A DNA stretch of 64,000 bases from assembly GCA_016196885.1 (NCBI GenBank), contig JACPWU010000002.1:22358-86357 (forward strand), in the 5' to 3' direction. Each line of letters begins with the position of its first letter. The stretch's first letter is position 1. Below are positions 7,807 to 33,629 of the stretch, one piece after another. This DNA comes from Chlamydiota bacterium. Lineage in GTDB: Bacteria > Auribacterota > JACPWU01. The notes under the pieces were generated by a model, which saw only the letters and a program-made list of their open reading frames with translations, was not told where the DNA came from and ran no database searches. The translations under genes were made by a program, and so were the position numbers.

Positions 7807-8832
7807 ATGTCTGTACCGATTCGTCAAGTTTTGAAGGTAGGTTCTTATGTTTTTCGCCAGCGCTTGAAAAAAAATAAGCGCTATCCTCTGGTCTTGATGT
7901 TGGAACCTCTTTTTCGTTGTAATCTCGCCTGCCCGGGCTGCGGTAAAATTCAATACCCGACAGACATTTTAAGAAGGCATCTTTCCCCTGAGCAATGTTT
8001 TAAGGCAGTGGAAGAATGTGGGGCGCCCGTGATTTCTGTTGCTGGAGGAGAGCCTTTACTGCATCCGCAAATTGAGGAAATTGTGAGTGGCCTGATTGGG
8101 CGCAAGAAATTTATTTATCTTTGTACCAATGCCATTTTGCTTGAAAGGAATTTACATAAATTTAAGCCGTCGGTTTATTTGACCTTGAGTATTCACATGG
8201 ATGGCCTAGAAGAATTGCATGACAAGGCTGTGGATCGCCGAGGGGTTTTTAGAGAGGCCGTAGGTGCGATTCAAAAGGCGAAGGAGTTGGGGTTTCGCGT
8301 GACTACCAACACCACCGTTTTTGATGGGGTGAATCCTCAAGAGATGATAGATCTTTTTGATGGTCTGACAGATTTAGGAGTAGACGGGATGATGGTGTCT
8401 CCCGGGTATGCGTATGAGAAAGCACCCGATCAAGAGCATTTTCTGAAGCGAAACAAGACGAAGACCCTTTTCTCCAAAATTTTAGGTGAGGATGGAAAGG
8501 GCAAAAAGAGGTGGAGATTTAATCATTCTCCTTTGTATCTGGAATTTTTGACAGGGCAGCATGATTATGATTGTACCCCTTGGGGCAATCCCAATTACAG
8601 CGTCTTAGGGTGGCAGCGTCCTTGTTATCTGATGGCGGAAGGGGGGCATGTTGAAAGTTTTAAAGAGTTAATAGAGGGGACCGATTGGTCCGGCTATGGA
8701 TGTAAAAGTGGCAACCCCAAATGCCAAGATTGTATGGTTCACTCCGGTTATGAGCCCACTGCGGTCAATGATTCCATGACCAGTGTTTCTAAAGCGCTGA
8801 AGTCTTTGGCGGGTGCTTTGGGGATTCGGTAA
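7807..8832 (+). CDS. Radical SAM protein, HpnH-like (adenosylhopane synthase family, C-terminal DUF3463-like)
   Basis: [16 protein letters not shown] CxxxCxxC cluster near the N-terminus. Cys-rich C-terminus ([12 protein letters not shown]...QRPCYLM). Identification as HpnH is from remembered similarity, not a search. Confidence 0.55.
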
Positions 8833-20799: not shown

Positions 20800-22017
20800 T
20801 CATTTCTTTAATTGCATAAGTTCAATTCTTTCCCGAATATGCTCCTCAAAAGTTAAAGCCTGCATTTGCCCCAGGGGACGTAGAAAGACGGCCCCTGTTT
20901 TTCGAGCCATGTCTTGGAAGCGCTTTTTGTTTTTTGGATGAATCGAATAGCCAATCGCTTGAAGCGCATTTTCCCATCCTTTAAGAACAGAAACAAGACT
21001 TCCTAAACCTCCAAGGGGTTTTACGAAAATGGTGCGATTCAGACAAGAGGGATGAAAAGCAGAATCATTTTCGTAGAGGACTGTCCAGCTTGTATTCGGA
21101 TGACTGGAGAGAGAAAAAGCTTTTTTCTTAAATTGATAGCGGCCTCGTATTTGATGAATCTGAGAGGCTTCTCCCGCAGAGATTTTGCCTGGGGGAAAAA
21201 GATGAGAAATTTCTTTCATGGCTTCAGCCAGTATTTTGGCCCATTCGCGAGCCGAAATTTTTGATTCTTTCTCAACATAAATGGCATGGGGTGATACGCA
21301 ACCTTGTTGATCATAGAGGCAAATGTCATAAGCCGCGCGTCTAGCTAATTTCTTTGCGTTTTGAGAGCGGAGACTTTCTTTATCAATGACCGCGATACTG
21401 ACTTTGTGTCCAAAGGGTAAGAATTTCTTTCTGGAAGGAAGCCGTTTTTGAATTTCTAAAAGGGTCTCATCGTTTCCATAAACATGGATAAGATCAGATG
21501 CTTTAAAAATGGTTTTCTCAAAATTAAATTCTCCGCCTTTCCACCCACAACAAGAAATGCAGTTGCCTAGTTTAGGATCTACTTGACGAATAGATTCAGC
21601 CAAGAGCATGGGAAAGAAAGGTGCGCGGGAAGAACATTTCACGAAAACAGATGATTTGAGAAGAAGCGCCCAAAAAATATCAAACAACATGGGGGTGGGA
21701 ATAATGCCTGCGAAAATAAAACTGGAGAGTTTGGGATTTGAAAAGACGTGTTTTTTCTGAAGGGCCGTCTTTAAATGATGAGATTGAACTTCCCTAAAGG
21801 CGATATTGAGGCCTTCAGAAATAACTTTCCTTGAGCATCCTGTGCTTTCAGAGAGGATGGTTTCTGCCTCCCGACGGGTGGGACTTTTCGTATCTAGCCA
21901 GAGAAGGGTGACTTGATGGAGTTTTTGAATGAGGGCTTCGTTGGGGAGAGGACTTAAGTAGGATGCTTGTTTTTCTTTAAGTCTTTTTAAGATTTTTTTT
22001 AAGTTGTTTTGATTCAT
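20800..22017 (-). CDS. LuxC-family acyl-CoA (acyl-protein) reductase-like protein
   Basis: 405 aa, aldehyde-dehydrogenase-like fold with conserved Cys (DQQGCVSPH). Occurs in the same strand block as a LuxE-like gene. Confidence 0.55.
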   Translation of the reverse strand: MNQNNLKKILKRLKEKQASYLSPLPNEALIQKLHQVTLLWLDTKSPTRREAETILSESTGCSRKVISEGLNIAFREVQSHHLKTALQKKHVFSNPKLSSFIFAGIIPTPMLFDIFWALLLKSSVFVKCSSRAPFFPMLLAESIRQVDPKLGNCISCCGWKGGEFNFEKTIFKASDLIHVYGNDETLLEIQKRLPSRKKFLPFGHKVSIAVIDKESLRSQNAKKLARRAAYDICLYDQQGCVSPHAIYVEKESKISAREWAKILAEAMKEISHLFPPGKISAGEASQIHQIRGRYQFKKKAFSLSSHPNTSWTVLYENDSAFHPSCLNRTIFVKPLGGLGSLVSVLKGWENALQAIGYSIHPKNKKRFQDMARKTGAVFLRPLGQMQALTFEEHIRERIELMQLKK

Positions 22018-22082
22018 AAGACCTTGACAAAAGAAAACTAGTTTATTAAACTAGTTGTGTTGGAAAACTGCAAGGACTTTTT

Positions 22083-22355
22083 ATGATGGAAGAGTATGGA
22101 TATGGACAAGATGTAAGTGCCTTTGAGGCCAAAACCCATCTTTCGGAGCTTTTAAGGGAGACGGAGCAAGGAAGGTCTTTTGTGATTCGTCGCAGGGGGA
22201 AAATGGTTGCAAGGTTGGTTCCCCCTCTACGAGAAAATAAACATGCCGAGATGGATAAAATTCTGGCGTCGTTTCGAGAAATTCGTCGGCATGTTGCAGG
22301 TCGTGGGAAGCCCATCAAGATTAAGAATCTTATTGAAGAAGGAAGAAGGTTTTGA
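22083..22355 (+). CDS. Type II antitoxin, Phd/YefM family
   Basis: 90 aa; VSAFEAKTHLSELLRETEQGRSFVIRRRGKMVARLVPP is a canonical Phd N-terminus. ATGA overlap with the downstream PIN gene. Confidence 0.75.
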   Translation: MMEEYGYGQDVSAFEAKTHLSELLRETEQGRSFVIRRRGKMVARLVPPLRENKHAEMDKILASFREIRRHVAGRGKPIKIKNLIEEGRRF

Positions 22356-22780
22356 TGGATTGGGTTCTGGACTGTTCTTTTGCGCTCTCCTGGACTTTCC
22401 CTGATGAGCGTTCAGAGTCGTCAGAGCGGCTCCTTAAAAATCTATCACAAGAATCTTTACTTTGGGTCCCTTCCTTGTGGTGGGTGGAGCTATCCAATGC
22501 AATGAGGGTGGGTTTAAAGAAGAAGAGGTTGTCAGAAGCTGATTTGACACTGGCGATGGATCATTATGGGTCACTTCGGATTCAAACGGATTTTGCGGGT
22601 CAATCTGACTATGTGTGGCGTCTTCTGAGTTTGACCAGAGAATATGATTTGTCTGCCTATGATGCTTCTTATCTCGAGTTATCTCAGAGAAAGGGTTTGG
22701 GTCTTGCTACTCTGGATCGTGCCTTAGCTTCTGCTGCTCAAAAAGCAGGTGTTAAATTGGCTCTTCGTCACTTAAGTTAA
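22352..22780 (+). CDS. vapC: Type II toxin, VapC (PIN domain)
   Basis: 142 aa; VLDCSFALSW start (LDxS), YDASYLELSQRKGLGLATLDRAL C-terminal PIN signature. Confidence 0.75.
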   Translation: MMDWVLDCSFALSWTFPDERSESSERLLKNLSQESLLWVPSLWWVELSNAMRVGLKKKRLSEADLTLAMDHYGSLRIQTDFAGQSDYVWRLLSLTREYDLSAYDASYLELSQRKGLGLATLDRALASAAQKAGVKLALRHLS

Positions 22781-23863
22781 ATAATTCTGCATAACTAGAG
22801 AGCAACCTCTGGGTTCTGCGCGAGGAGCCCTTCCCAGAATTTCGAATCCATCTCCCATTTTCACACCCATGTCTTCCGTCAAAAGCCCCATGACACTGGA
22901 GCGATTGGCCAAATCATAATGTTGAAGAAGACCTATTTTACCTTTGGGTTGTTCCTCCAGTGTAGAGGGATTGAGCACACGTGTTCTTACCCAAGGAGGA
23001 ATGTTTTTGTAAATTTTTCTTTTTCGTTTCTGAATAAAATTTTGAAGGGTGTTGTCATAAAATTGGGAACCCATTTCGGTCATGCCGTATTCGTTTACAA
23101 TATGGGTGAGAGGAATATCCAATATTTGATGAATCATTTCATAAAGTTCTTTTTTCGCAAGCTCCCGGGATTTCCCTTTGGTGCCCCCTGTTTCCATCAC
23201 ACGTGAACCTGAAGGGAGTTTAAATTTCCACTTTTTCTCGACACAATGATCTAGAAAATGGACGAATGAGAAGGCTGTTCCTAAGATAATGACGGGTTGA
23301 TCGGACGAAGAAAATGATTCCAGTTTTTTCTGAAGGAATTCTGAAAGGAGTTTCCCTTTTTTTAAGAAATAATAGGTTTTACCTTTGATGCCTATTTCTT
23401 TTTCGAGAACACCCATCATGTGACACAGAGATGAATGGGGCATTTCTTGAGGAGTGGGCGTTAGGATGAGCAAGGGCCATCGCTTTTCATGGATGCAAAA
23501 GCTATTTTTAAAATGGATGAGAAGCGATTTTTCGTAGAACCTTAAATTTTCAAGATAGTGGCGACCCTTCTTTTGAAGGGTTGTTCCACTGGTGTGAAAG
23601 ACTTTTTGTGCCTTTCGAAATGGGAAACAGCATAGGATTTCTTCTTTGAAAACAGTTGTGGGTACAAAGGGGATCTCTTTCCAATGGGAAATTTTGCAAG
23701 GGATTCGGCCTAATTGAAGGCAGTATTTTTGAAAAGGGCGATTGTGAAGATATTGATATTTAAAAAGTTCAAGGGCGAGGGAATTAAATTTTTTTTCATT
23801 TGCTTGTGCCTCTTCCATAAAATCCAAAATAAGACAGTCTAATTTTTTTGTGCTGAGAGACAT
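22772..23863 (-). CDS. LuxE-family acyl-protein synthetase/adenylating enzyme-like protein
   Basis: 363 aa; N-terminal LELFKYQYLHNRPFQKYC and HTSGTT(LQKKG) adenylation-type motif. Confidence 0.6.
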   Translation of the reverse strand: MSLSTKKLDCLILDFMEEAQANEKKFNSLALELFKYQYLHNRPFQKYCLQLGRIPCKISHWKEIPFVPTTVFKEEILCCFPFRKAQKVFHTSGTTLQKKGRHYLENLRFYEKSLLIHFKNSFCIHEKRWPLLILTPTPQEMPHSSLCHMMGVLEKEIGIKGKTYYFLKKGKLLSEFLQKKLESFSSSDQPVIILGTAFSFVHFLDHCVEKKWKFKLPSGSRVMETGGTKGKSRELAKKELYEMIHQILDIPLTHIVNEYGMTEMGSQFYDNTLQNFIQKRKRKIYKNIPPWVRTRVLNPSTLEEQPKGKIGLLQHYDLANRSSVMGLLTEDMGVKMGDGFEILGRAPRAEPRGCSLVMQNYLT

Positions 23864-25179
23864 TTTTCAATCACTTTGTAAGCGTGTCCAAGTTGTTTTT
23901 CGGAAATGCTCAAGGGAGGTGTAAAGATGAGCACGTTGCCATCCATCCCATCTGAAAGGAAGATAACTCCTTCTCTCAAAGCTTGCGTAACCAAATCTCT
24001 TGCCCTGCGGGGATCCGCTCTTCTAGAATTTTTCTGAACAATTTCGACTCCGATCATGAGTCCTCTTCCTCGAATTTCGCCGATACAAGGATAGGTCCTT
24101 TGAAGCTTCCGGAGTTGTAAAATCCATTTTTCTCCCAAGATTCGTGCCCTTTCTATCAATTTAAGCTTTTGAATTTCTTGAAGATTCCTAAGGGCCATGG
24201 CACATCCCAAGGGACTTGCCATGAAAGTGCTGGTGTGAAGTGCCTCGTCGTGGTAGCGAGGCCAATGGGACATGACTTTGCGAGTACCGATGCAGGCGGA
24301 AATAGGAAAACCTCCAGAAAGGCCTTTACCAATGGTCATAATATCAGGAACAATGTCACTCGCTTGGAAGGCAAACCAAAATCCAGTTCTCCCCATCCCT
24401 GAATAAATTTCGTCAGCAATCAATAAAACATGATATTGATTGCACAGATGCCGCAGCCCTTTTATGAAGAGGGGAGGGGCCATTCGAATGCCGCCTCTTC
24501 CCTGAATGGGTTCAATCAGCACAGCGCCTATTTTATTTTTTTTGAAAAGCGTTCCCATTTTTTTGAACAAGTGATGGATTTGTTCGGAGGTGAAATTGTG
24601 AGGATAAGAAACTGAAATGCTTCGAAGGCCCAGTTGATTTTTAAAAGGTTGATGTAGATTAAGAAAATTTGTGGCTTTCAAGGCTCCGTAACTCATGCCG
24701 TGATAGCTGCCTTCGAAAGTGATAAGGCCTGATTTTCCCGTGGCCAAAAACGCTGTCTTAATAGCGATTTCAACTGCCTCTGCCCCTGACGATCCAAAAA
24801 TTATTTTTTCAAGAGGGGAGGGAAAAATTTTACTTAAGCGTTCAAGCAATTGGATTTTGGATTTGTCAGGATAGACATCACTCAAGGAATGAAGAAGTTT
24901 TTGGGCCTGTTTCATTAGGGCTTTCACGACGCTAGAATTTGTGTGGCCCGTTTGTGCTACACCAAATCCAGCTGTGAGATCAAGGTAGCGATTCCCATCC
25001 ACATCCCAGACGTTGGCTCCTTGGGCTTTTTCCCAAACAATGGGGGTGTTCTTATTGATAAGGGTGATGTTGGGGCATTCATGACGCAAAAGTTTTTTTG
25101 CCAGGGCCCTAGATTTTGGGCCTGGAATTGCGGTGCTTCTGATTTCAGGAAGAAATGTCCTAGAGGTATTTTTCATCAA
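23839..25179 (-). CDS. Class-III (PLP fold type I) aminotransferase
   Basis: 446 aa; GSSGAEAVEIAIKTA and LLIADEIYSGMGRTGFWFAF...TIGKGLSGGFP (PLP-Lys). Confidence 0.8.
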   Translation of the reverse strand: MMKNTSRTFLPEIRSTAIPGPKSRALAKKLLRHECPNITLINKNTPIVWEKAQGANVWDVDGNRYLDLTAGFGVAQTGHTNSSVVKALMKQAQKLLHSLSDVYPDKSKIQLLERLSKIFPSPLEKIIFGSSGAEAVEIAIKTAFLATGKSGLITFEGSYHGMSYGALKATNFLNLHQPFKNQLGLRSISVSYPHNFTSEQIHHLFKKMGTLFKKNKIGAVLIEPIQGRGGIRMAPPLFIKGLRHLCNQYHVLLIADEIYSGMGRTGFWFAFQASDIVPDIMTIGKGLSGGFPISACIGTRKVMSHWPRYHDEALHTSTFMASPLGCAMALRNLQEIQKLKLIERARILGEKWILQLRKLQRTYPCIGEIRGRGLMIGVEIVQKNSRRADPRRARDLVTQALREGVIFLSDGMDGNVLIFTPPLSISEKQLGHAYKVIEKCLSAQKN

Positions 25180-25348: not shown

Positions 25349-26632
25349 ATGGACTCTAAAATTCCGAAATATCAGAATCCTTGGTGGGAAAACCCACAGG
25401 CCATGCTTGATGACCAGCATCTTCTTGCCATTCGAGGGAAACCCTACGAATATACCCCATCGCTGGTTTGTGAGACGCCATTTGCTCCAGGGGACATTTT
25501 TGTCTTGAGAGGTCCTAGACAGGTTGGGAAGACAACAACCCTTAAAATGTTTATTCACCGTTTGCTCCAAAAAGAATGTGTCGACCCACACTCTGTTTTT
25601 TACTTGAGTTGTGAGGCGATCATTGATTTTAGAGAGTTGATAGAAGTTCTTTCAGAATATTTTGCGGACCGGAAAGGAAAAAGAACTTACCTCTTCCTGG
25701 ATGAAATTTCTTTTGTTTCAAAGTGGCAAAGGGCGATTCTTGCAATTGCAAATCAAGGCTTGATAAATTCTTCAACCCTTGTGTTGACAGGATCCAATGC
25801 AAGAGATTTGAGAGAGAGCAGTGAGCGTCTTCCCGGAAGAAGAGGGAAGGGAAAAGATCTGGAACTTTTTCCGCTGTCTATTCCACAATTGAAAACATTA
25901 CCCTGTTTTCAAGAGTGTTCGTTCAAGAGGCTTTTAGAGATTTATATGCTTGTGGGAGGGTTTCCCAGGGCAATTGCAGACTTTGTCACGCTGGGGGCTG
26001 TTACTGACAATACTTATGATATCTATCGTAATTGGATTGTGGGGGATGCCAGTCGCTATGATTTAAGACAGGAGACATTAAAGCAGATTCTCTTTCGGAT
26101 TGCCCAAACCATGGGAAGTCGTATCACCTGGCCTAAACTGATTGAGAATAGCCCTGTCAAAAGCCATGAAACAGCGCTTGAATATGTTGAACATTTGAAA
26201 GATGCTTTTCTCTGTCATGTCCATTACTGTTATGACCCCGATCTAAACGGCCCCTCTTTTCATAAGGCGAGAAAAATCTATTTTATGGATCCTCTTCTTT
26301 ATGGGGTTGCTGTATGTTGGCGTGAGGGCAGGGTCAATATAGCCCAGTGGATGAAAGAAACGCTTCAGGATGATTCAGAATACGGCCACATGTTTGAGTC
26401 TACTGTGATCAATCACGCGGCAAGAATTTATCCTGAAATTTTCTTTTGGTACTCTGCCAAAGAGCAAAAAGAGATTGACCTCGTTCTCAAATATTCAGGT
26501 GAAACAAGCCTTTATGAAGTCAAGCGATCAGAAGATTCAACGGTGCTTCGCGCCTTGGGTAGAAACGTCTCTATTCTTCATCCGCAATCGTTCGAGAAAT
26601 TTCTAACAAATTGTTCAGTGCCTCGTTCTTGA
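25349..26632 (+). CDS. AAA+ ATPase with C-terminal DUF4143-type (PD-(D/E)xK-like) domain
   Basis: 427 aa; Walker A LRGPRQVGKTTTL; architecture of the AAA_14+DUF4143 family. Confidence 0.7.
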   Translation: MDSKIPKYQNPWWENPQAMLDDQHLLAIRGKPYEYTPSLVCETPFAPGDIFVLRGPRQVGKTTTLKMFIHRLLQKECVDPHSVFYLSCEAIIDFRELIEVLSEYFADRKGKRTYLFLDEISFVSKWQRAILAIANQGLINSSTLVLTGSNARDLRESSERLPGRRGKGKDLELFPLSIPQLKTLPCFQECSFKRLLEIYMLVGGFPRAIADFVTLGAVTDNTYDIYRNWIVGDASRYDLRQETLKQILFRIAQTMGSRITWPKLIENSPVKSHETALEYVEHLKDAFLCHVHYCYDPDLNGPSFHKARKIYFMDPLLYGVAVCWREGRVNIAQWMKETLQDDSEYGHMFESTVINHAARIYPEIFFWYSAKEQKEIDLVLKYSGETSLYEVKRSEDSTVLRALGRNVSILHPQSFEKFLTNCSVPRS

Positions 26633-28078
26633 AGAAAGTTTTTTAGTTTGCTTAATATCGAACTCATTTTCCGAAATCAAAATGGCGGTCATCCCTCCTT
26701 GCTGGGCGACGTTGACGATTTCTCTCTGGGAGGCTCGGCCTAAAATGCCCAATCCATAAGGAGAATAAATGAAGCCGCAGACGACATTCAAGTTTTTCTC
26801 AGTGACTCTTCCTTTTTCATCTAGGATGGGAAATTTTTTCTTTCTTGTCGCGCATCGTTTTTGAAGAACATAAGAACCTGGATCTCGAATGGCCTTCTCG
26901 AGGGCCTTCTCCCAAGTTATTTTTGGAGTCTCGTCCCCCATCAAAATGCCCATGCCTCCGTAACCGCGATTGGGTTTGAGAACCCATTCATTTCGATGGT
27001 GAATCGCATGGGAGATCAGGTCAACCCTTTTTCCATCGGGGTCTGTCGTTTTTGTCTCTCGCACGAGCCGTGTCCACAAAACATGTTTCTTGAAAATTTT
27101 CCTTTCCTCTAAATTGAAGTGGTGTTCAAACTCTGGGTTGCTGAAAATTTCAAAGGCGCTTTTATGATCGAGTTCTCCGGAGAGTCCTGAAACCACGACA
27201 TTTTCTTGAAAGGCTTTTCGAATGGCTTTAAGAGGCTTTCCCTCTTCTTTTTCCATTTCGATGAATTCTTCGAGGGTGCTGTCACGGTAAAGAATGTCTA
27301 GGGGCAAATCCTTATACACGATTTCTCCCTTTTTGATTTTGAGGTCTCGTGGATCTGCAACCACGGCTTCGATTCCTTGGGATTGAAAAAGTTGGGCGAG
27401 GTAAAAAAAATCGAGAGGTCCGCCTTTGGTTCGGTCATCTAGGATGAGTCCGATGTTACATCGACGCTTGCCCAACATTTTTAAATGGGCTTGAAGTTCC
27501 CATAGAAGAATGGAGCGAATGTCATCATTGGGCCGGACTTGAAGGTTTGGGGCGAGGGGACGTAAGGAGTGGATCACCGTTTCTAAAATAATTCTTTCAG
27601 CCGTCGGCGTGTAATGAAGGCCGCCCACCCCTACGCCATTAACCTCCAGAAAATGAAAGGCCGCCCGCCAATCTTGTCCACTGAAGTTGGCATTTGCGTC
27701 CCAGCGGGTGATGGCGGTACGGGGAGCCTCTCGATTTTGGGGGAAGTATTGGAGGAACCATTCCTCTTCTTTTTTCTGAAAGGGGAAGAGTTTTTTCACT
27801 TTAGGATTTTTGAGATAAAGCCATGACAATTTTTGATAGGCCTGGTTCATGTGGTAGCATGTCTTTAGAAAAAAGGTGCGTTGGAGAGGTGTGATCAAGC
27901 GAGGCCTCATCAGAAGTGGGATCAGGCGGGTAGAGCCGTTTTCCTCTTCGTACACCATGCCTTTTTTGCGGCTTTCTTTTTGAATTTCTCGAAAAAGTTT
28001 TTGAATCTCGTGTTTGTCCAACTTCATGAAGAGCTGATGAATGGAGTTAGAGAGGGAATAATCGGGCCAAGGACTCAT
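26615..28078 (-). CDS. Circularly permuted ATP-grasp (type 2)-like ligase
   Basis: About 487 aa from ATG at 28078 (ORF track start 28120 runs into an upstream hairpin repeat). Gly-rich ATP-grasp-like segments PNRGYGGMGILMG and VAQQGGMTAIL. Family call is tentative. Confidence 0.5.
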   Translation of the reverse strand: MSPWPDYSLSNSIHQLFMKLDKHEIQKLFREIQKESRKKGMVYEEENGSTRLIPLLMRPRLITPLQRTFFLKTCYHMNQAYQKLSWLYLKNPKVKKLFPFQKKEEEWFLQYFPQNREAPRTAITRWDANANFSGQDWRAAFHFLEVNGVGVGGLHYTPTAERIILETVIHSLRPLAPNLQVRPNDDIRSILLWELQAHLKMLGKRRCNIGLILDDRTKGGPLDFFYLAQLFQSQGIEAVVADPRDLKIKKGEIVYKDLPLDILYRDSTLEEFIEMEKEEGKPLKAIRKAFQENVVVSGLSGELDHKSAFEIFSNPEFEHHFNLEERKIFKKHVLWTRLVRETKTTDPDGKRVDLISHAIHHRNEWVLKPNRGYGGMGILMGDETPKITWEKALEKAIRDPGSYVLQKRCATRKKKFPILDEKGRVTEKNLNVVCGFIYSPYGLGILGRASQREIVNVAQQGGMTAILISENEFDIKQTKKLSSRTRH

Positions 28079-28093
28079 GAAGCACCTTTTATG

Positions 28094-28168
28094 ACCAGCG
28101 GTCAGCGTACAGTTTTGCAAGGAATTGATTTTTTTTCCTGACTGCTAAACGCTGACCGCTGACCGCTT
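28094..28168. repeat. CAGCGTACAGCG-family word hairpin, copy 3
   Basis: accagcggtcagcgtacag...ctgctaaacgctgaccgctgaccgc in the divergent intergenic region. Confidence 0.5.
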
Positions 28169-28245
28169 CTTTATTTATGATATTAAAATAAGTCATCAGT
28201 TGCTATGATTAAAGGGGAGTCCTTGGGTTAAAGAAAGGAGAAATC

Positions 28246-28479
28246 ATGGTTGATACAGATTTGAAAGATGTGAAGGAGATCGTTTCTACTGTGAAAGAGT
28301 TGCAGGGAAATATTAAGGATTTAGTGGAGATTTTTTCAAAATTGCCTTCGGGGAAGCACCGCGGTGTTTCTGGAGATTTAGAATTGACCACGAAAGAAAA
28401 AGAAGTCTTGAAATTAATTCAGCGGGAACAAGAGAGGGCAGATCAGGTCGTCAATGCCTTGACGCAGGCGATTCGTTAG
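28246..28479 (+). CDS. Hypothetical small protein (77 aa)
   Basis: SD aaaggag; charged helical protein; no family. Confidence 0.4.
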   Translation: MVDTDLKDVKEIVSTVKELQGNIKDLVEIFSKLPSGKHRGVSGDLELTTKEKEVLKLIQREQERADQVVNALTQAIR

Positions 28480-28482
28480 ACA

Positions 28483-28600
28483 ATGGCCTATTCCCAATGA
28501 CAAATGACAAATCAATATCCAATGCCCAATGACCTATGGGACATTCGTTGTGGGTCATTCATTTGGCATTGGGGATTGGAAATTTGCCATTTTTTAATTA
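28483..28600. repeat. CCAATGACC...GGGTCATTCATTTG element, copy 1
   Basis: cccaatgacctatgggacattcgttgtgggtcattcatttggcattggggattggaaatt. Near-identical core recurs at 47835-47940. Confidence 0.55.
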
Positions 28601-28700
28601 CAAATGAGAAAGGGTCTGATATTCTTAGTTTGAGTGGGCGTTAAATGATGAGTTTAATGAAGGCCATTTAAAGGAGAGGAAGGATCGTACTTACACGATC

Positions 28701-29726
28701 ATGCGAGTCGGGCTGACATACAATCTCAAAGAAAATGCCAGTCTAGCAGATGAACATTCTGCAGAATGGGACTTACCTGAAACCATTGACGCCATCGCGA
28801 ATGCTCTTTCCCGCGAGCATGAGGTCATTTGGGTTTTGGCGGATGCCGATGCCTATGAGAAGTTGAGACATTCTCGGGCAGACATCGTGTTCAATGTTGC
28901 GGAAGGAAAAGACGGCCCCAATCGAGAAGCACATTTACCTGCCATTTTAGAATTCTTGAGAATTCCATACACAGGTTCTGACTCTTTGACTTTGAGTCTT
29001 TGTCTCAACAAGGCTCGGACCAAGGAAATTCTTTTCTATCACGGGATTCCCACACCTGATTTCCAAGTTTTTCACGCCTCCAATGAACCTCTCGTCTTGA
29101 CCGATTATCCAATGCTGGTGAAGCCGTTATGGGAAGGTTCGAGCATTGGAATTCATGACAATGTCTGGGTTGAAAATGAGAAGGAACTTCGTTCAAAAAT
29201 GAAGGGGATCATTGTTCAACATCATCAACCTGCGATTGTTGAAGAAGCCTTGACGGGAAGAGAGTTCACCGTGGCTCTTTTGGGAAATGGAACTCAGTTG
29301 AAGGTGTTGCCTTTGGTTGAAGTGATGTTGGATGCATTGCCCCATGAGGCCCATCCGCTTTATTCTTATGAGGCGAAATGGATTTGGGACACCCCTGAAA
29401 AGCCTTTGGATATTTTTCATTGTCCGGCCCAGGTGGAGGATGTTTTAAAGGGAAAAATAGAAGGAATTGCCAAGGCCGCTTTTAGAGCCTTGGGGTGCCG
29501 TGATTGGTGCCGGATCGATGTTCGGTTGGACCGAGAGGGAAATCCCTCCATCCTAGAGGTGAACCCGCTCCCGGGCATTTTACCCAATCCTCGTCAAAAT
29601 TCTTGTTTTCCAAAAGCGGCTCGGGCGGCTGGGATGGATTATCCCGAAATGGTTCTTTCCATTTTGGGGGCGGCGCTGGAGCGCTGTGGAATGTTAGAAT
29701 CTGTGGGGAGTTCGAAAAGGCGTTAG
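28701..29726 (+). CDS. D-alanine--D-alanine ligase-family ATP-grasp enzyme (paralog A)
   Basis: 341 aa; ADIVFNVAEGKDGPNREAHLPAILEFLRIPYTGSDSLTLSLCLNKARTKEIL matches the Ddl N-terminal/central-domain consensus. Confidence 0.7.
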   Translation: MRVGLTYNLKENASLADEHSAEWDLPETIDAIANALSREHEVIWVLADADAYEKLRHSRADIVFNVAEGKDGPNREAHLPAILEFLRIPYTGSDSLTLSLCLNKARTKEILFYHGIPTPDFQVFHASNEPLVLTDYPMLVKPLWEGSSIGIHDNVWVENEKELRSKMKGIIVQHHQPAIVEEALTGREFTVALLGNGTQLKVLPLVEVMLDALPHEAHPLYSYEAKWIWDTPEKPLDIFHCPAQVEDVLKGKIEGIAKAAFRALGCRDWCRIDVRLDREGNPSILEVNPLPGILPNPRQNSCFPKAARAAGMDYPEMVLSILGAALERCGMLESVGSSKRR

Positions 29727-29896
29727 CCCGCATTTCTCATCAGATTTCGTCGCGAGAGCGTCGAGTCTGCCTTGGATGCGAGGAAGACGCTCCGTGCCAT
29801 GCGAGGCATACTTTACAGTATGTTGAGCGTGGCCGACCGAGTCTGCACGGAGAGACGAGGCGGAATCGGAGAAGAGCAGCAGAAATGTGATGAGAA

Positions 29897-30952
29897 ATGT
29901 GGGCTAGCATGAAAAAAATTATCATTCTTTATGATGCCACTCCAGGCTTCCAGCTAGATCCGGAGGCAAAAAAGGCCTTGGATGTTTTTAGGGATGTTGA
30001 AAAAATAGGATGTATTTTGAAAAAACAGGGCTTTCAAATTCAAACCTTGGGGTTGGACTTTCCGATCATTCGTAAGATTCAAGAATTGGTAAACACCGAT
30101 GTGGATTTGGTTTTTAACCTTTGTGAGGGATTGGGGGATGAGAGTGCCTATGAAATTCATGTGGCCTCTTTGTTAGAATTGATGAAAGTTCCCTTTACAG
30201 GATCGGGTTCTCTCAGCCTCGCCTTCTGTCACAACAAGGCGATTGCGAAGGCCCTCTTGAATATGCATGGCATGCCGACGCCGAATTATATTTTAGTTGA
30301 AGCAGGGGATCCCATCTCTAAACAAGGATTGGAATATCCTTTGATTGTGAAGCCAGTACATGAGGACGGGAGTTTTGGAATTGATGAAGATTCAGTGGTG
30401 CACCATGATGGGCCCCTGAAGAAAAAGGTTTCTTTTATTCATGAATTTTTTCGGCAGCCCGCTATTGTGGAAGAATTCATTGATGGCCGAGAGTTTAACG
30501 TTTCGATTTTGGGAAATGATCCTTTGGAAATGGTGAAGGTTCGTGAAATTTGTTTTTCCTCAAGGTACGAGCCTCGCATTGTGAGTTTTGATGCAAAGTG
30601 GAAAAAATCAAGCCGTGCCTTTCGCGCCACGAGGCCTTGTCGGGTGGAGGATCTTCCACAAGGGGTTAAGGAAAAGATGATACAGGTTGCGATTCGATGC
30701 CACGAGATTTTTAAAATGAAGGATTATGGACGAATTGATTTTCGATTGGGGAAAAGCGAGATTCCTTATGTCATTGATTTAAATCCCAATCCCTGTATTT
30801 CAGCTGATTCGGGAATGGCCTTGGCAGCCGTTGAGGATGGGATTTTATATGAAGAACTTATCGGAAAAATCGCAAGCCTTGCCTTGTCTCGAGAAAATGG
30901 GAAAGGTCTTCAGGGTTCGGGAAGCAACTCCATCGGATCGAGAGAGGATTGA
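29897..30952 (+). CDS. D-alanine--D-alanine ligase-family ATP-grasp enzyme (paralog B)
   Basis: 351 aa; VDLVFNLCEGLGDESAYEIHVASLLELMKVPFTGSGSLSLAFCHNKAIAKALL. Confidence 0.7.
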   Translation: MWASMKKIIILYDATPGFQLDPEAKKALDVFRDVEKIGCILKKQGFQIQTLGLDFPIIRKIQELVNTDVDLVFNLCEGLGDESAYEIHVASLLELMKVPFTGSGSLSLAFCHNKAIAKALLNMHGMPTPNYILVEAGDPISKQGLEYPLIVKPVHEDGSFGIDEDSVVHHDGPLKKKVSFIHEFFRQPAIVEEFIDGREFNVSILGNDPLEMVKVREICFSSRYEPRIVSFDAKWKKSSRAFRATRPCRVEDLPQGVKEKMIQVAIRCHEIFKMKDYGRIDFRLGKSEIPYVIDLNPNPCISADSGMALAAVEDGILYEELIGKIASLALSRENGKGLQGSGSNSIGSRED

Positions 30953-31385
30953 GGAGATTCTCAAGGCGTCAAAAGTTTTTAGCCAAGCCGAGGTTGCTTG
31001 TGCCCTTTCTCTTTTCGAGATTTATCTGGAGAGAGGAGGAGCGGATGAGTATGTTTTTTGCTGTGCCTGCGATGAGGCAGATGTTGTTCAGGGATTGATT
31101 TGCTATGGGAAGGCTTCTCTGACGGATGCAGTTTATGATCTTTATTGGGTGGTGACGCATCCAGTCCATCAGGGAAGAGGGATCGGGAGCTTGCTCATGG
31201 AAGAACTGGACCATCGCCTGAAAATTTTAGAGGCTAGAATGATTTTAGCTGAGACTTCTTCGAGGGCTGATTACGAGAAGTCTCGGGCGTTCTACCGTGC
31301 CCATGGGTATGAGCTTGTTTCGACGATTCAAGATTATTATGCGTTGGGAGAAGATTTGGTTGTTTTTGGGAAAAGATATCCTTAA
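30897..31385 (+). CDS. GNAT-family N-acetyltransferase (possible beta-lysine N-acetyltransferase, AblB-like)
   Basis: GNAT motif A HPVHQGRGIGSLLMEEL. Start at ATG 30897 (ORF track 30831) overlaps the previous gene by about 56 nt in another frame. Confidence 0.65.
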   Translation: MGKVFRVREATPSDRERIEEILKASKVFSQAEVACALSLFEIYLERGGADEYVFCCACDEADVVQGLICYGKASLTDAVYDLYWVVTHPVHQGRGIGSLLMEELDHRLKILEARMILAETSSRADYEKSRAFYRAHGYELVSTIQDYYALGEDLVVFGKRYP

Positions 31386-31430
31386 GACTGTTATTCGTAC
31401 TTCGTTTTAAAAGAAATAAAGGAGGATTTT

Positions 31431-32678
31431 TTGAACAATCGCGTTCAAGAAATTTTAAAGGCGACATCTCAAGAATGGAACGATTGGCATTGGCAGATGC
31501 GTCATCGCATCTTGAGCGTGGACGATTTAGAAAAATTGATTCAACTATCTGAAGAAGAAGAAAAAGGAATTGAGTGGGCTTCTCATCAGAGAAGCCTCCC
31601 CTTGGCCGTCACCCCTTTTTTTGTCTCTCTGATGGATCCTGAGAACTTCGATTGCCCGGTTCGAAAACAGGTCATTTGTAGGCAAGAGGAATCCCTGGAT
31701 GCCCTTTTTGACATGCAGGATCCTTGCGGGGAAGATTCTCACAGCCCTGTTCCCAATTTGGTGCATCGTTATCCAGACCGGGTGCTTCTGATTGCAACGG
31801 ATCGTTGTCTTTCTTATTGCAGGTATTGTACGCGCAAGAGAATTGTGGGAAGTGGAGAGGTGGGTCTCTCCACAGAGAAATTGGACAAGATTTGCGATTA
31901 TTTGGAGTGCACACCGCAGGTGAGAGATGTTCTCATTTCAGGGGGGGATCCTTTGATTCTTTCAGATGAAAGAATTGATTATCTCTTGGGGCGTCTTCGG
32001 AAAATCAAGCACTTGGAAATTTTAAGAATTGGAACGCGAGGCCCTGTTTTTCTTCCGCAGAGGATTACTCCGGACTTGGTCTCTATCTTAAGAAAATACC
32101 ATCCTTTTATGATGAGCATTCATGTGAATCATCCAAAGGAATTGGCGCCTGAGGTGTCGCGTGCCTTAGAAATGCTGGCGGATGGAGGGATTCCCTTGGG
32201 GAGCCAAACCGTTTTGCTCAAGGGCGTGAATGATGACCCAGACGTTGTGATGAAATTGTGCCATGAACTTTTAAAGGTCAGGGTGCGGCCTTATTATCTT
32301 TACCAGTGCGATCCTGTCTTTGGGACAGAGCATTTTCGGACCTCTGTGGATGTGGGGGTGAAGATCATCGAGAAGATGAGGGGCCATACCACTGGTTATG
32401 CCGTTCCCACTTTTGTGGTGGATGCCCCCGGAGGGGGAGGGAAAATTCCTATCTCTCCCAATTATCTGGTTTCCAATGTTCGAGGGAAAACCATTTTGCG
32501 CAATTACGAGAATAAAATTTTTGAATATCATGATCCTTTGGAAATTGGGGCTAAAAAGAGACGGTCGAGGGCGAAGACATGGACTTCTTTACAAATGACA
32601 TTGCCTCTTAAAGTAGAATCTTTCACTCCTTCCGAGCCCTTTGTTCAGCCTAAAAAGGCCAAGAGCGCCATTCGTTAA
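31431..32678 (+). CDS. kamA: Lysine 2,3-aminomutase (radical SAM, KamA/AblA family, full-length type)
   Basis: 415 aa; HRYPDRVLLIATDRCLSYCRYCTRKR (CxxxCxxC), plus SGGDPL and C-terminal domain. Length matches KamA rather than short EpmB. Confidence 0.85.
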   Translation: MNNRVQEILKATSQEWNDWHWQMRHRILSVDDLEKLIQLSEEEEKGIEWASHQRSLPLAVTPFFVSLMDPENFDCPVRKQVICRQEESLDALFDMQDPCGEDSHSPVPNLVHRYPDRVLLIATDRCLSYCRYCTRKRIVGSGEVGLSTEKLDKICDYLECTPQVRDVLISGGDPLILSDERIDYLLGRLRKIKHLEILRIGTRGPVFLPQRITPDLVSILRKYHPFMMSIHVNHPKELAPEVSRALEMLADGGIPLGSQTVLLKGVNDDPDVVMKLCHELLKVRVRPYYLYQCDPVFGTEHFRTSVDVGVKIIEKMRGHTTGYAVPTFVVDAPGGGGKIPISPNYLVSNVRGKTILRNYENKIFEYHDPLEIGAKKRRSRAKTWTSLQMTLPLKVESFTPSEPFVQPKKAKSAIR

Positions 32679-32711
32679 ACATTTTCTTCTCGACCTTACC
32701 TTCGGATCATC

Positions 32712-33629
32712 TTGAAAGGGGGGTTTTCTGTGCAAAAAATAGACTTTGGTATTGCCTGGGAGTGGGAATACGATGGAGATTTTATTCGGCTTTTAGAGGC
32801 CGAGTGTGAAAGGCAAGGTTTGAGTGTTTGGGTCGTCCATCCCAAGAATTTTGATGCGGTTCATGAAAAGATAGAGAGAAAAGAAATTTCTTTGAGTGCC
32901 TATTTGGATCGCGCGGGCGATGTCTTGGAGCGCTTTGCCCGATTTGCGGAAGGCCTCAGGGCTCAAGGCGCCTGGGTTCTCAATCCATTCTCGCATGTTG
33001 AAAGGTCGAGAGACAAGGCCACGATGCATTTAGAATTTCTCACCAAGGGTCTTCAAGTTCCTTTTACAGTGATTCTTTCCCCTTATGACAAAGACCCCGA
33101 ACTGAGGTTCAGCGAACTTGAGAAATTGGGCCGTCCTTTTATCATCAAACCTGCTTGTGGGGGAGGAGGCTTGGGCGTGGTGATGGGTGCTGAAAATTTG
33201 TTGGATGTAATTGAGGCCCGGAAGGAATACCGCGCCGATAAATATTTGCTTCAGAAGAAGATTATTCCAAAGTGTTTTGGGCTCCGGCGAGCTTGGTTTC
33301 GCTCCTTTTATGTGTGTGGGAAGGTCATTTCCTGCTGGTGGAATGATGAGACGCATCTCTACGACGTTTTGACGGATGAAGAAAAAGAACTTTATCACTT
33401 GGTAAAATTAAAAAATGTGACCCGCTCTATTGCAGAGGTATGCGAGTTAAATTTTTTTTCAACCGAGATCGCTATTGACGAGGAGGAAAAATTCGTGGTG
33501 GTGGATTATGTGAATGAGCCTTGTGACATGAGAATGAAGTCTGTTCATCGGGATGGTGTTCCAGATGAAGTGGTTCAAGAGATTGTGCAAGCCTTGGTAG
33601 AAGGGGTCAAAAAGACAGTTATAAGTTGA
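32712..33629 (+). CDS. ATP-grasp domain protein (RimK/GSH-synthetase-like)
   Basis: 305 aa; FIIKPACGGGGLGVVMG ATP-grasp glycine-rich loop. Confidence 0.6.
   Translation: MKGGFSVQKIDFGIAWEWEYDGDFIRLLEAECERQGLSVWVVHPKNFDAVHEKIERKEISLSAYLDRAGDVLERFARFAEGLRAQGAWVLNPFSHVERSRDKATMHLEFLTKGLQVPFTVILSPYDKDPELRFSELEKLGRPFIIKPACGGGGLGVVMGAENLLDVIEARKEYRADKYLLQKKIIPKCFGLRRAWFRSFYVCGKVISCWWNDETHLYDVLTDEEKELYHLVKLKNVTRSIAEVCELNFFSTEIAIDEEEKFVVVDYVNEPCDMRMKSVHRDGVPDEVVQEIVQALVEGVKKTVIS

Follow-up and report, generated by a model that had tools for sequence, protein, structure and literature searches.

A recurrent bacterial operon pairing Ddl-like ATP-grasp ligases with a lysine 2,3-aminomutase, a candidate source of an acetylated beta-lysine-containing amide

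The closest described route from lysine 2,3-aminomutase to a small metabolite is the AblA/AblB pathway for N-epsilon-acetyl-beta-lysine in methanogens (Pfluger et al. 2003, cited in PMC3543383). D-Ala-D-Ala ligase and the Van ligases (Ddl, VanA) form amide bonds through an acyl-phosphate mechanism, and in Enterococcus faecium an aspartate racemase is reported to make D-Asp that the adjacent ATP-grasp ligase Aslfm adds to the stem peptide of a peptidoglycan precursor (Bellais et al. 2006). Circularly permuted (CP) ATP-grasp enzymes, including glutathione synthetase, glutathionylspermidine synthetase (GspS), the peptidyl-polyamine synthetases YgiC/YjfC and fungal Cp1B (PMC12568646), join a carboxylate, often a peptide C-terminus, to an amino acid or a polyamine. 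In the Ngg/AsnO pathway a GNAT and an ATP-grasp ligase, reportedly fused in one protein using glutamine, make N-acetylglutaminylglutamine amide, a small N-acetylated dipeptide solute (Sagot et al. 2010), without an aminomutase or a Ddl-like pair. The LysX/ArgX amino-group carrier protein pathways and ArgA-E operate on N-protected substrates. Here we describe a locus of a Chlamydiae genome (assembly GCA_016196885.1, contig JACPWU010000002.1) that shares elements with each of these systems. Its four-gene core recurs in at least 578 species-representative genomes of more than ten bacterial phyla, and no paper describing it was found.

The locus lies in a 64,000-nt stretch of DNA (the window), and all seven of its reading frames proposed in a first-pass annotation are present, the five plus-strand genes being co-directional and closely spaced (Table 1); thus the original observation was confirmed. 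By the ORF list, the four successive intervals between these five genes are a gap of 170 nt, an overlap, and gaps of 45 and 33 nt. No mur, ddl or fts cell-wall synthesis genes were found nearby.

Table 1. Features of the locus and its flank, in window coordinates
Feature	Open reading frame	Strand	Length by ORF (aa)	NCBI start	Length by NCBI start (aa)
LuxC-type reductase (possible lineage-specific extension, 20800-25179)	20800-22017	-			
PhD/PIN pair (insertion)	22083-22780				
LuxE-type acyl-protein synthetase (same extension)	22772-23863	-			
Class-III aminotransferase (same extension)	23839-25179	-			
AAA_14/DUF4143 (insertion)	25349-26632				
Divergent CP-ATP-grasp ligase, predicted glutathione synthetase / GspS fold	26615-28120	-	501	28078	487
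Conserved ORF of unknown role	28246-28479	+	77		
DdlA-like ATP-grasp ligase	28701-29726	+	341		
DdlB-like ATP-grasp ligase	29897-30952	+	351	29909	347
Small GNAT N-acetyltransferase	30831-31385	+		30897	162
Lysine 2,3-aminomutase (KamA)	31431-32678	+	415	31416	
Accessory classical ATP-grasp ligase, predicted LysX/ArgX/RimK/Ddl fold	32712-33629	+	305	32730	299

The core order DdlA-like, DdlB-like, small GNAT, KamA is syntenic, on one strand, in Chlamydiae, Desulfuromonadales, Acidobacteriota, Kryptoniota, Bacteroidota, Ignavibacteria, Chlorobiaceae, Planctomycetota, Nitrospinota and Auribacterota. The same gene order recurs in most of 76 related genome loci, with median gaps of −4, −17 and +14 nt, indicative of translational coupling and far beyond chance. 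DdlB follows DdlA in 69 loci, and the GNAT occupies the third position in 59. Of 47 loci with at least 4 kb on both sides, 43 have DdlB and 33 have KamA within 6 kb. In one Pirellulales locus DdlB is fused to the GNAT. No transporter or regulator is conserved with the cassette, and a search for riboswitches gave none.

The DdlA-like protein, the signature gene of the cassette, matches PF07478 with 129 bits and its DdlB-like paralogue (31% identical to it) with 86 bits, but their scores with the NCBIfam Ddl model (188 and 136, respectively) fall below its cut-off of 243. Both share with Ddl the fold and the ATP/Mg residues (EGSS, Arg255/Asp257, Glu270/Asn272), and therefore probably the acyl-phosphate mechanism. 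On the other hand, DdlA is only about 30% identical to solved Ddl structures, K215-Y216 becomes K-W, His63 becomes Glu, an insertion is present in the omega-loop, and the N-terminal substrate region does not align. The two genes also differ from Ddl and VanA in occurring as an A/B paralogue pair without cell-wall gene context. DdlA is 52-66% identical across more than 10 phyla, which is far stronger conservation than is usual for small-molecule ligases.

The KamA protein (PF04055 + PF12544; 354 bits with TIGR00238 against a cut-off of 199) contains the motifs HRYPDRVLL and CLSYCRYC and aligns with clostridial LAM (PDB 2A5H, 468 bits over residues 3-371). The CxxxCxxC motif, Arg134, Lys337 and the lysine-binding pair Asp293 and Asp330 are conserved, while Cys268 is Asp and the C-terminal Cys cluster and domain are absent. 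The same pattern holds in 54 + 14 cassette KamAs examined, in which the conserved residues are invariant and which form a distinct clade without the zinc site. The protein is of the LAM type rather than the EpmB type (492 bits with the AblA model against 236 with EpmB), albeit below the AblA equivalog cut-off of 525, as were the cassette KamAs of every lineage tested. The GNAT (PF13508 and PF00583) gave no hit to the AblB model even at E <= 1, its best NCBIfam hit being rimI with 35 bits. Compared with the AblA/AblB system, the locus has in common a lysine-type aminomutase beside a GNAT in one operon, making acetylated beta-lysine a plausible intermediate, but the GNAT is of a generic type and two to four amide ligases are co-inherited.

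A second architecture, Ddl-like < KamA < PmbA < TldD divergent to the CP-ATP-grasp gene, occurs in 13 or more distant metagenome loci. Its Ddl-like protein belongs to a separate deep clade, 40% identical to DdlA, so that KamA neighbors a Ddl-like ligase in two separate clades and the minimal recurring pair is KamA with a Ddl-like gene, without any GNAT. Residues E22, D24, H40, E68, R75 and E76 are conserved across both KamA-linked clades, whereas those at the second-substrate site differ between them.

The product of the divergent gene scores only 17 bits with PF14403, below its cut-off, although many of its homologs carry this domain. Its AlphaFold model (pLDDT 86.6) matched over its full length circularly permuted ATP-grasp enzymes in a Foldseek search (TM 0.65-0.74), with human glutathione synthetase on top (E 1e-19, TM 0.65) followed by Cp1B, YjfC/YgiC, TryS and GspS. 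Sequence identity to these enzymes is only 10-15%, the substrates are not known, and the gene is linked to KamA/Ddl-like and TldD/PmbA genes rather than to glutathione genes. It also lies divergent to the KamA/Ddl-like operon in a related Chlamydiae locus (L091), where it is followed by Aminotran_3, LuxE and LuxC genes with 4-nt overlaps or short gaps. In the window these genes are separated from it by the insertions listed in Table 1. This linkage was seen only in this Chlamydiae lineage. The LuxE/LuxC/aminotransferase set would perform carboxylate to aldehyde to amine chemistry, as LysZYJ and ArgBCD do, but no LysW-like carrier gene was found. The 77-aa ORF between the divergent operons has a strong GGAG ribosome-binding site and no family hits. 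Its homologs are located at the same position in L091 (85 bits) and 7 kb upstream in another Chlamydiae locus, L009 (109 bits).

The fifth plus-strand gene scores 39 bits with rimK_fam (E 5e-10), below the family cut-off and, as with LysX, far below it. The Foldseek top hits of its AlphaFold model (pLDDT 87.4) are Ddl, ArgX, LysX and RimK (TM 0.65-0.76). It adjoins the cassette in Chlamydiae (three loci, L009 and L091 among them), Auribacterota (one locus) and some Deltaproteobacteria (three loci), but stands alone in most lineages, and we consider it an accessory.

An unexpected link emerged from the loci that lack KamA (14 of the 47). In 11 of these 14, the homospermidine module SpeY-SpeB-pyruvoyl ADC (its function taken from PMC13625781 and PMC10981699) lies directly upstream of DdlA. 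In one Nitrospinae locus PvlArgDC overlaps the start of DdlB, and GNAT-Hist_deacetyl fusions are adjacent in 7 loci. This polyamine linkage is concentrated in two lineages, Thermodesulfobacteriota/Deltaproteobacteria and Nitrospinota, and could partly reflect inherited synteny. DdlA, DdlB and GNAT show essentially no residue switch between KamA-linked and KamA-less loci (0/131, 1/85 and 1/52 conserved columns, respectively). Hence, beta-lysine may not be the substrate of the ligases, or KamA is simply unlinked in those genomes, which was not examined here.

The interpretation offered by the first-pass annotation was partly supported. It identified the genes correctly, and it had specified in advance that the cluster would be dismissed if the Ddl-like genes scored as genuine Ddl and the locus were not conserved as a unit in relatives, or if KamA were the short EpmB type; the scores, residues and synteny described above came out in its favor on both counts. 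The divergent CP-ATP-grasp that it noted is also recurrently linked to KamA and Ddl-like genes in distant lineages. In contrast, KamA and the GNAT, which is not AblB-type, are not the known AblA/AblB pair that it took them for, only two of its "three extra ligases" are core, and nothing supports a cyanophycin-like polymer. Neither the polyamine linkage, the strongest functional clue, nor the possible continuation of the divergent operon into aminotransferase, LuxE and LuxC genes was visible from the sequence alone.

Of the alternatives considered, a cell-envelope role appears unlikely but is the strongest. In this view DdlA/DdlB would attach beta-lysine or a polyamine to a peptidoglycan precursor, paralleling the Aslfm operon, in which one enzyme likewise makes an unusual amino acid for an adjacent ATP-grasp ligase, or the covalent polyamination of peptidoglycan in Negativicutes. 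The homology to Ddl and the high conservation of DdlA, which would fit a universal large substrate, are consistent with it, as are a YkuD L,D-transpeptidase downstream in Nitrospinota, Amidase_2 + LysM directly after the Ddl-like gene in several KamA/TldD loci and an SLT transglycosylase upstream in Deltaproteobacteria. However, these neighbors vary and are absent from most loci, the window included (in the KamA/TldD loci the downstream gene can instead be TerC or baeRF), and no Mur ligase, MraY or flippase is linked. Nothing shows a peptidoglycan precursor as the target here, Aslfm belongs to a different ATP-grasp subfamily and has no GNAT, the role of a GNAT and of deacetylase fusions would be unclear, and we found no paper linking an ATP-grasp enzyme to peptidoglycan polyamination.

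A plain N-epsilon-acetyl-beta-lysine osmolyte pathway, with KamA and the GNAT as functional AblA/AblB analogs and the Ddl-like genes unrelated or merely regulatory, is somewhat less likely still. The lysine-type active site of KamA and the GNAT immediately upstream would fit it, the Pelobacter carbinolicus genome paper annotates an adjacent ablA/ablB pair as an osmolyte pathway (PMC3543383), and acetyl-beta-lysine is reported in green sulfur bacteria, a Chlorobiaceae MAG carrying the cassette. Against it stand the AblA and AblB model scores, the translational coupling of DdlA/DdlB to GNAT/KamA across phyla, the DdlB-GNAT fusion, the GNAT-free minimal pair and the origin of many hosts from groundwater, soil and freshwater. 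Ligation of beta-lysine onto a protein such as EF-P or a ribosomal protein, analogous to EpmA/EpmB or RimK, is also improbable. It could be suggested by the homology of KamA to EpmB, the RimI and RimK/LysX best hits, the TldD/PmbA peptidases of one architecture and a deoxyhypusine-synthase homolog next to some loci. Yet this homolog, SpeY, is now shown to make homospermidine (PMC13625781), EF-P lies within 10 kb in only 1 of about 150 loci, organisms such as Desulfuromonas acetoxidans and Syntrophus have a separate yjeK-efp pair in addition to ablA-ablB (PMC2821294), the RimI and RimK hits are far below the family cut-offs, and Ddl-type ligases normally act on small molecules. Finally, the notion of unrelated neighbors including a housekeeping ddl, favored only by the many database entries naming the homologs D-alanine--D-alanine ligase, is refuted by the sub-threshold scores, the changed D-Ala site residues and the synteny with overlapping stop and start codons across more than 10 phyla.

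The explanation we favor, held with about even confidence, is that the operon makes beta-lysine and incorporates it into a small amide or peptide by means of ATP-grasp ligases. KamA would isomerize L-lysine to beta-lysine, as inferred from its fully conserved catalytic and lysine-binding residues. DdlA, the candidate beta-lysine ligase, would then form an acyl-phosphate and the first amide bond with beta-lysine as one substrate, as inferred from the obligate pairing of KamA with a Ddl-like ligase in two separate Ddl-like clades and from extra conserved acidic residues where Ddl binds the ammonium group of its first substrate. DdlB would add a second amide bond, and the GNAT would N-acetylate a remaining free amine, the DdlB-GNAT fusion arguing for consecutive steps on one intermediate. 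While the gene identities, residues, folds, synteny, fusions and linkage come directly from the analysis, every substrate, the order of steps and the physiological role are deductions from them; no product is known and no enzyme of the cassette has been assayed. The strong conservation of DdlA would also fit a large conserved substrate such as a peptidoglycan precursor or a protein.

Overall, the product would be a soluble, N-acetylated beta-lysyl di- or tri-amide, which in this Chlamydiae lineage is probably extended, or coupled to an amine, by the two further ligases. The recurrent homospermidine module and GNAT-deacetylase fusions suggest that it belongs to the polyamine and organic-cation economy of the cell, either as a polyamine conjugate or as a polyamine-like molecule, rather than being a plain osmolyte.

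Every ORF reported in the first-pass annotation is present in the window, which belongs to contig JACOUD010000070.1 of a groundwater Chlamydiae MAG (GCA_016178005.1), and the observation of a co-directional gene set with short gaps or overlaps stands. Pfam and NCBIfam profile searches assigned two Ddl-like ATP-grasp proteins, DdlA and DdlB (PF07478, 129 and 86 bits), a small GNAT, a KamA-family radical-SAM enzyme (TIGR00238, 354 bits against a cut-off of 199) and a weak RimK/LysX-like ATP-grasp (39 bits, E 5e-10), while the protein encoded on the opposite strand showed only a sub-threshold hit to PF14403 (17 bits). No mur, ddl or fts synthesis genes are located nearby. The interpretation offered together with this observation (a known AblA/AblB pair supplemented with three ligases that attach beta-lysine, or its acetylated form, to other amino acids) was only partly supported, as detailed below.

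Whether the Ddl-like genes would score as genuine Ddl with its D-Ala specificity residues had been named at the outset as a possible refutation of the cluster, and the outcome was clearly negative. Both proteins fall below the NCBIfam/TIGR01205 cut-offs of 243/246 bits (188/167 for DdlA and 136/117 for DdlB). In the alignments with solved Ddl structures (8EVY/4ZQI) the ATP-grasp catalytic core, comprising the EGSS loop, Arg255, Asp257, Glu270 and Asn272, is conserved (and is invariant in the group labelled A1). In contrast, the D-Ala-site residues (Glu15 region, His63, Lys215-Tyr216, Ser281-Leu282) are not retained: Lys215-Tyr216 is Lys-Trp (invariant in both DdlA and DdlB), His63 is Glu, Leu282 is Cys with only Ser281 kept, the first 46 or so residues do not align, and the omega loop carries a 5-residue insertion. 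These changes are invariant in a 12-sequence cross-phylum alignment. DdlA and DdlB are paralogues sharing 31% identity. A housekeeping ddl role was therefore rejected on family cut-offs, residue changes and genomic context.

KamA is a lysine-type aminomutase of a distinct clade. Aligned to the C. subterminale LAM (2A5H, 468 bits), the window protein keeps the radical-SAM CxxxCxxC cysteines, Arg134, the PLP-binding Lys337, and both aspartates that bind the lysine epsilon-ammonium group, Asp293 and Asp330, and the same pattern holds in all 54 cassette KamAs from genomes and 14 from metagenome loci (360 to 447 aa long). None of them keeps the zinc ligand Cys268 or the clostridial C-terminal domain: the inter-subunit zinc site of the 2A5H type (Cys268 plus Cys375/377/380) is missing, as Cys268 is replaced by Asp in the window and by D, N, K, S, Q or E in all 54 genomic copies, and the C-terminal tails are unrelated. 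On the AblA equivalog model (TIGR03820, cut-off 525.4 bits) the window protein scores 491.7 bits, and its orthologues in L033 (Desulfuromusa kysingii DSM 7343), L046 (a Chlorobiaceae MAG) and L012 (Nitrospinae) score 471, 479 and 521, respectively, i.e. always under the cut-off, the match of the window protein ending at about model position 367 of 417 due to the missing C-terminal domain. The possibility of a short EpmB-type enzyme (EF-P beta-lysylation), likewise listed in advance as grounds for dismissal, was ruled out by a TIGR03821 score of 236.5 bits against a cut-off of 369 (about 230–250 bits in the copies scored) and by the lack of genomic linkage, an EF-P homologue being found within 10 kb in only 1 of about 150 loci. 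Glutamate and arginine 2,3-aminomutase activities were rejected based on Asp293/Asp330 and model scores; glutamate 2,3-aminomutase is reported to carry Lys/Asn in place of the two aspartates (Ruzicka & Frey 2007), and its model (TIGR04368, cut-off 650 bits) gives 440 bits. Thus, the product of KamA, the stereochemistry of which is open, is almost certainly beta-lysine.

On the other hand, the GNAT is not an AblB-type beta-lysine N-acetyltransferase (TIGR03827; about 270 aa). The window protein is 162 aa long, and the 13 NCBIfam families matched at E <= 1, among them rimI (35 bits), EctA (15 bits) and similar generic hits, do not include AblB (the presence of this model in the NCBIfam release used was not independently confirmed). 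The suggestion of a cyanophycin-like oligomer is also not borne out, as no cassette protein contains the Mur-ligase-like domain that is fused to ATP-grasp in cyanophycin synthetase, and the corresponding model (TIGR02068) appears only at E 0.007 (14 bits) for a RimK-like orthologue.

Conservation of the locus as a unit in relatives, the remaining condition set beforehand, was assessed by genome context analysis. DdlA has very close relatives (52–66% identity) in many phyla. A scan of one genome per GTDB species with two DdlA-specific peptide motifs yielded at least 578 confirmed relatives. In the best 80 loci, combined with loci retrieved by protein identity, the order DdlA > DdlB > GNAT > KamA dominates. 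Of 47 loci with at least 4 kb on both sides, 43 have DdlB and 33 have KamA within 6 kb, with median intergenic distances of -4, -17 and +14 nt, typical of translational coupling. Among the variants, Nitrospinae display the order DdlB > GNAT > KamA > DdlA (L012), an Auribacterota MAG has DdlA > GNAT > KamA > RimK-like (L017), and in a Pirellulales MAG (L062) DdlB is fused to the GNAT. The closest relatives of the window locus (L005, L009 and L091) have all five genes, followed by the same DivIC and enolase genes as in the window. No riboswitch or leader RNA was found in the window or in 16 related loci, and the two riboswitches detected in related loci (L017 and L108) are not positioned to control the cassette. 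In Kryptoniota/Bacteroidota loci (L007, L019, L020, L021 and L027) a NusG paralogue (174–179 aa) directly upstream of DdlA, preceded by a Wzz/GNVR chain-length regulator, may be a dedicated antiterminator for the operon. Genes of Mg2+ transporters are adjacent to the cassette in two lineages, MgtE upstream of DdlA in the Desulfuromusa group (L003, L004, L033 and L040) and CorA downstream in Auribacterota (L017), which may be due to chance or relate to cation balance. A search against PADLOC models of anti-phage defence systems gave no hit for any of the seven locus proteins.

Coordinates of flanking and variant features in the window and in related loci
Locus	Position	Strand	Feature
Window	7807-8832	+	Radical-SAM protein with a DUF3463 domain
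Window	20800-25179	-	Class-III aminotransferase, LuxE-type acyl-protein synthetase and LuxC-type reductase
Window	22083-22780	+	PhD/YefM antitoxin and PIN toxin pair
Window	25349-26632	+	AAA_14/DUF4143 ATPase, PADLOC candidate family PDC-S01 (117 bits)
L007	7234-7758		NusG paralogue (same position in L019, L020, L021 and L027)
L017	13739-14830		CorA Mg2+ transporter
L017	15539-15686	-	c-di-GMP-I riboswitch
L062	11031-12770	-	DdlB-like ATP-grasp fused to a GNAT (579 aa)
L062	5493-7193	+	Second DdlB-like protein with an N-terminal DUF3109-like region (566 aa), directly upstream of KamA
L108	597-727	+	c-di-AMP riboswitch
L155	9484-10398	-	Arginase/agmatinase-family gene

The fifth gene, counted in the first-pass annotation as one of three ligases of the operon, is an ATP-grasp but not a demonstrable RimK/LysX member, its scores (39 and 30 bits) being far below the cut-offs of TIGR00768 (143 bits) and TIGR02144 (276 bits). 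Its AlphaFold model (pLDDT 87) matches Ddl, ArgX/LysX, RimK and RiPP ATP-grasp ligases about equally well. The family has about 2,500 detectable homologues at roughly 50% identity across phyla; it is adjacent to the cassette in Chlamydiae, Auribacterota and three deltaproteobacterial loci but stands alone in the Nitrospinae, Ignavibacteriales and other contigs inspected (in one such Nitrospinae contig, L155, an arginase/agmatinase-family gene lies 1.5 kb away). It is an accessory rather than a core component.

The divergent gene, encoding a putative circularly permuted (CP) ATP-grasp, and the 77-aa ORF were originally considered unrelated to the cassette as both are absent upstream in L005 and L009. 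This view was reversed by three observations. Although the window protein scores only 17.1 bits on PF14403 (gathering score 32 bits), many of its 562 homologues, including many at 40–69% identity, carry this domain. Its AlphaFold model (pLDDT 86.6, pTM 0.87) superposes over its full length on circularly permuted ATP-grasp ligases, including human, plant and yeast glutathione synthetase, fungal Cp1B, E. coli YjfC/YgiC, trypanothione synthetase and glutathionylspermidine synthetase (Foldseek: 2HGS at E 1e-19 and TM 0.65–0.74, followed by 9CJN, 7UK6/7UK8, 2VPS and 2IOB), of which YgiC/YjfC are described as peptidyl-polyamine synthetases (PMC12568646). Finally, its linkage recurs: in L091 it is again divergent to the five-gene operon, and in the locus of a 42%-identical homologue and in at least 12 further metagenome loci it is divergent to an operon TldD-PmbA-KamA-Ddl-like (as in L092). 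The Ddl-like protein of the latter architecture forms a separate deep clade, 40% identical to DdlA, with Trp227 replaced by Arg and a changed second-substrate loop, but shares with DdlA a set of conserved N-terminal-domain acidic and basic residues (E22, D24, H40, E68, R75 and E76). The pairing of two different Ddl-like clades with KamA is the strongest argument that beta-lysine is a ligase substrate. That these clades share N-terminal-domain residues while differing at the second-substrate site suggests that beta-lysine occupies the first, acyl-phosphate site, although, unlike the alignments and linkage it rests on, this last point is an inference.

In L091 the CP-ATP-grasp heads a tight operon with a class-III aminotransferase, LuxE and LuxC. 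The same genes are present in the window, part of a non-luminous Chlamydiae genome, where the operon appears to be interrupted by insertions: an AAA_14/DUF4143 gene, the 3' end of which overlaps the end of the CP-ATP-grasp gene convergently by 18 nt, and a toxin-antitoxin pair between LuxE and LuxC on the opposite strand. LuxE/LuxC plus a transaminase would convert a carboxylate (the actual substrate is not known) via an aldehyde into an amine, which again fits the manufacture of basic amines, but this linkage is lineage-specific and is given low weight. Elsewhere in the window, in a region with a Rieske protein and an ECF-type sigma factor, lies a radical-SAM gene with the DUF3463 domain, a combination that occurs in hopanoid-associated HpnH-type enzymes.

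A link to polyamines emerged from the loci lacking KamA. In 11 of the 14 such well-covered loci three co-directional genes lie immediately upstream, encoding a deoxyhypusine-synthase homologue, an agmatinase-family enzyme and a pyruvoyl arginine decarboxylase. This trio is the recently established SpeY/SpeB/ADC route from agmatine to homospermidine (PMC10981699, PMC13625781); these papers do not mention ATP-grasp neighbours. In Nitrospinae (L012) the decarboxylase gene overlaps the start of DdlB in a KamA-containing cassette, and seven Desulfuromonadales loci carry, next to the cassette, a GNAT fused to a histone-deacetylase/acetylpolyamine-amidohydrolase-type domain. Together with the GspS-like predicted fold of the divergent ligase, this is a consistent theme of amide chemistry on basic amines. 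One result remains puzzling. A search for a residue switch between KamA-linked and polyamine-linked cassettes, aimed to reveal which ligase binds the variable substrate, found essentially none, with 0 of 131 conserved columns switching in DdlA, 1 of 85 in DdlB and 1 of 52 in the GNAT. The chemistry is probably the same in both; either KamA is unlinked in the genomes with KamA-less loci (whole genomes were not examined), or beta-lysine is not what the core ligases bind.

Our preferred explanation, held at about even confidence, is that the locus encodes an ATP-grasp assembly line for an N-acetylated beta-lysine-containing amide or peptide, functionally tied to polyamines. Modification of a peptidoglycan precursor appears unlikely; it is supported by the Ddl ancestry, the high conservation of DdlA and scattered peptidoglycan-enzyme neighbours, such as a LysM + Amidase_2 (N-acetylmuramoyl-L-alanine amidase) gene following the Ddl-like gene in several TldD-PmbA-KamA-Ddl-like operons (L092, L105, L113, L117, L118, L148 and L149). 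However, these neighbours are inconsistent, other loci having TerC or a baeRF-family gene at that position, and the theme was not followed further in the KamA/TldD loci. A plain acetyl-beta-lysine osmolyte pathway, still less likely, is contradicted by the non-AblB GNAT, by its coupling and fusion with the ligases and by the GNAT-less KamA + ligase architecture. The least favored of these alternatives is protein modification, as EF-P is not linked and some hosts have a separate yjeK-efp pair (PMC2821294), whereas chance adjacency is excluded. A more far-reaching possibility, which we consider doubtful but do not rule out, is that the cassette makes a previously unrecognised class of bacterial organic polycations, in which ATP-grasp ligases would assemble beta-lysyl amides (either oligo-beta-lysine or beta-lysine joined to agmatine, putrescine or homospermidine) subject to reversible N-acetylation by the GNAT and GNAT-deacetylase fusions. 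Such a pathway would be present in more than ten phyla and would act as a parallel or supplement to classical polyamines.

No curated family covers DdlA, DdlB, the fifth ligase or the CP-ATP-grasp clade. Full-text literature searches on ATP-grasp enzymes in conjunction with aminomutases, beta-lysine or deoxyhypusine synthase found no description of the cassette, although a prior in silico mention, most likely in the 2009 comparative-genomics survey of amidoligases (Iyer et al. 2009, Mol Biosyst 5:1636; PMC3268129), is not excluded. An adjacent ablA/ablB pair was annotated in the Pelobacter carbinolicus genome without mention of ligases (PMC3543383); its membership in the same cassette was not confirmed. 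The locus, in which an ATP-grasp amide-ligase pathway is combined with beta-lysine formation, is experimentally uncharacterised, widely distributed and readily testable.

The signature ligase is carried by at least 578 species-representative genomes from Chlamydiota, Acidobacteriota, Nitrospinota, Planctomycetota, Bacteroidota/Chlorobi/Ignavibacteria, Kryptoniota, Desulfuromonadales and others, where databases mostly call it "D-alanine--D-alanine ligase" or "ATP-grasp domain-containing protein", and correcting this misannotation is useful in itself. The cassette is small enough for heterologous expression and is present in at least one cultured strain, Desulfuromusa kysingii DSM 7343. Its repeated physical linkage to the SpeY/SpeB/ADC homospermidine pathway and to glutathionylspermidine-synthetase-like ligases makes it a testable question whether many environmental bacteria make peptide-polyamine or polyamine-like conjugates. 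If the product is indeed a beta-lysine amide or peptide, it adds a third fate for bacterial beta-lysine, after the acetyl-beta-lysine osmolyte and EF-P modification, and would also be a new non-NRPS route to beta-amino-acid peptides.
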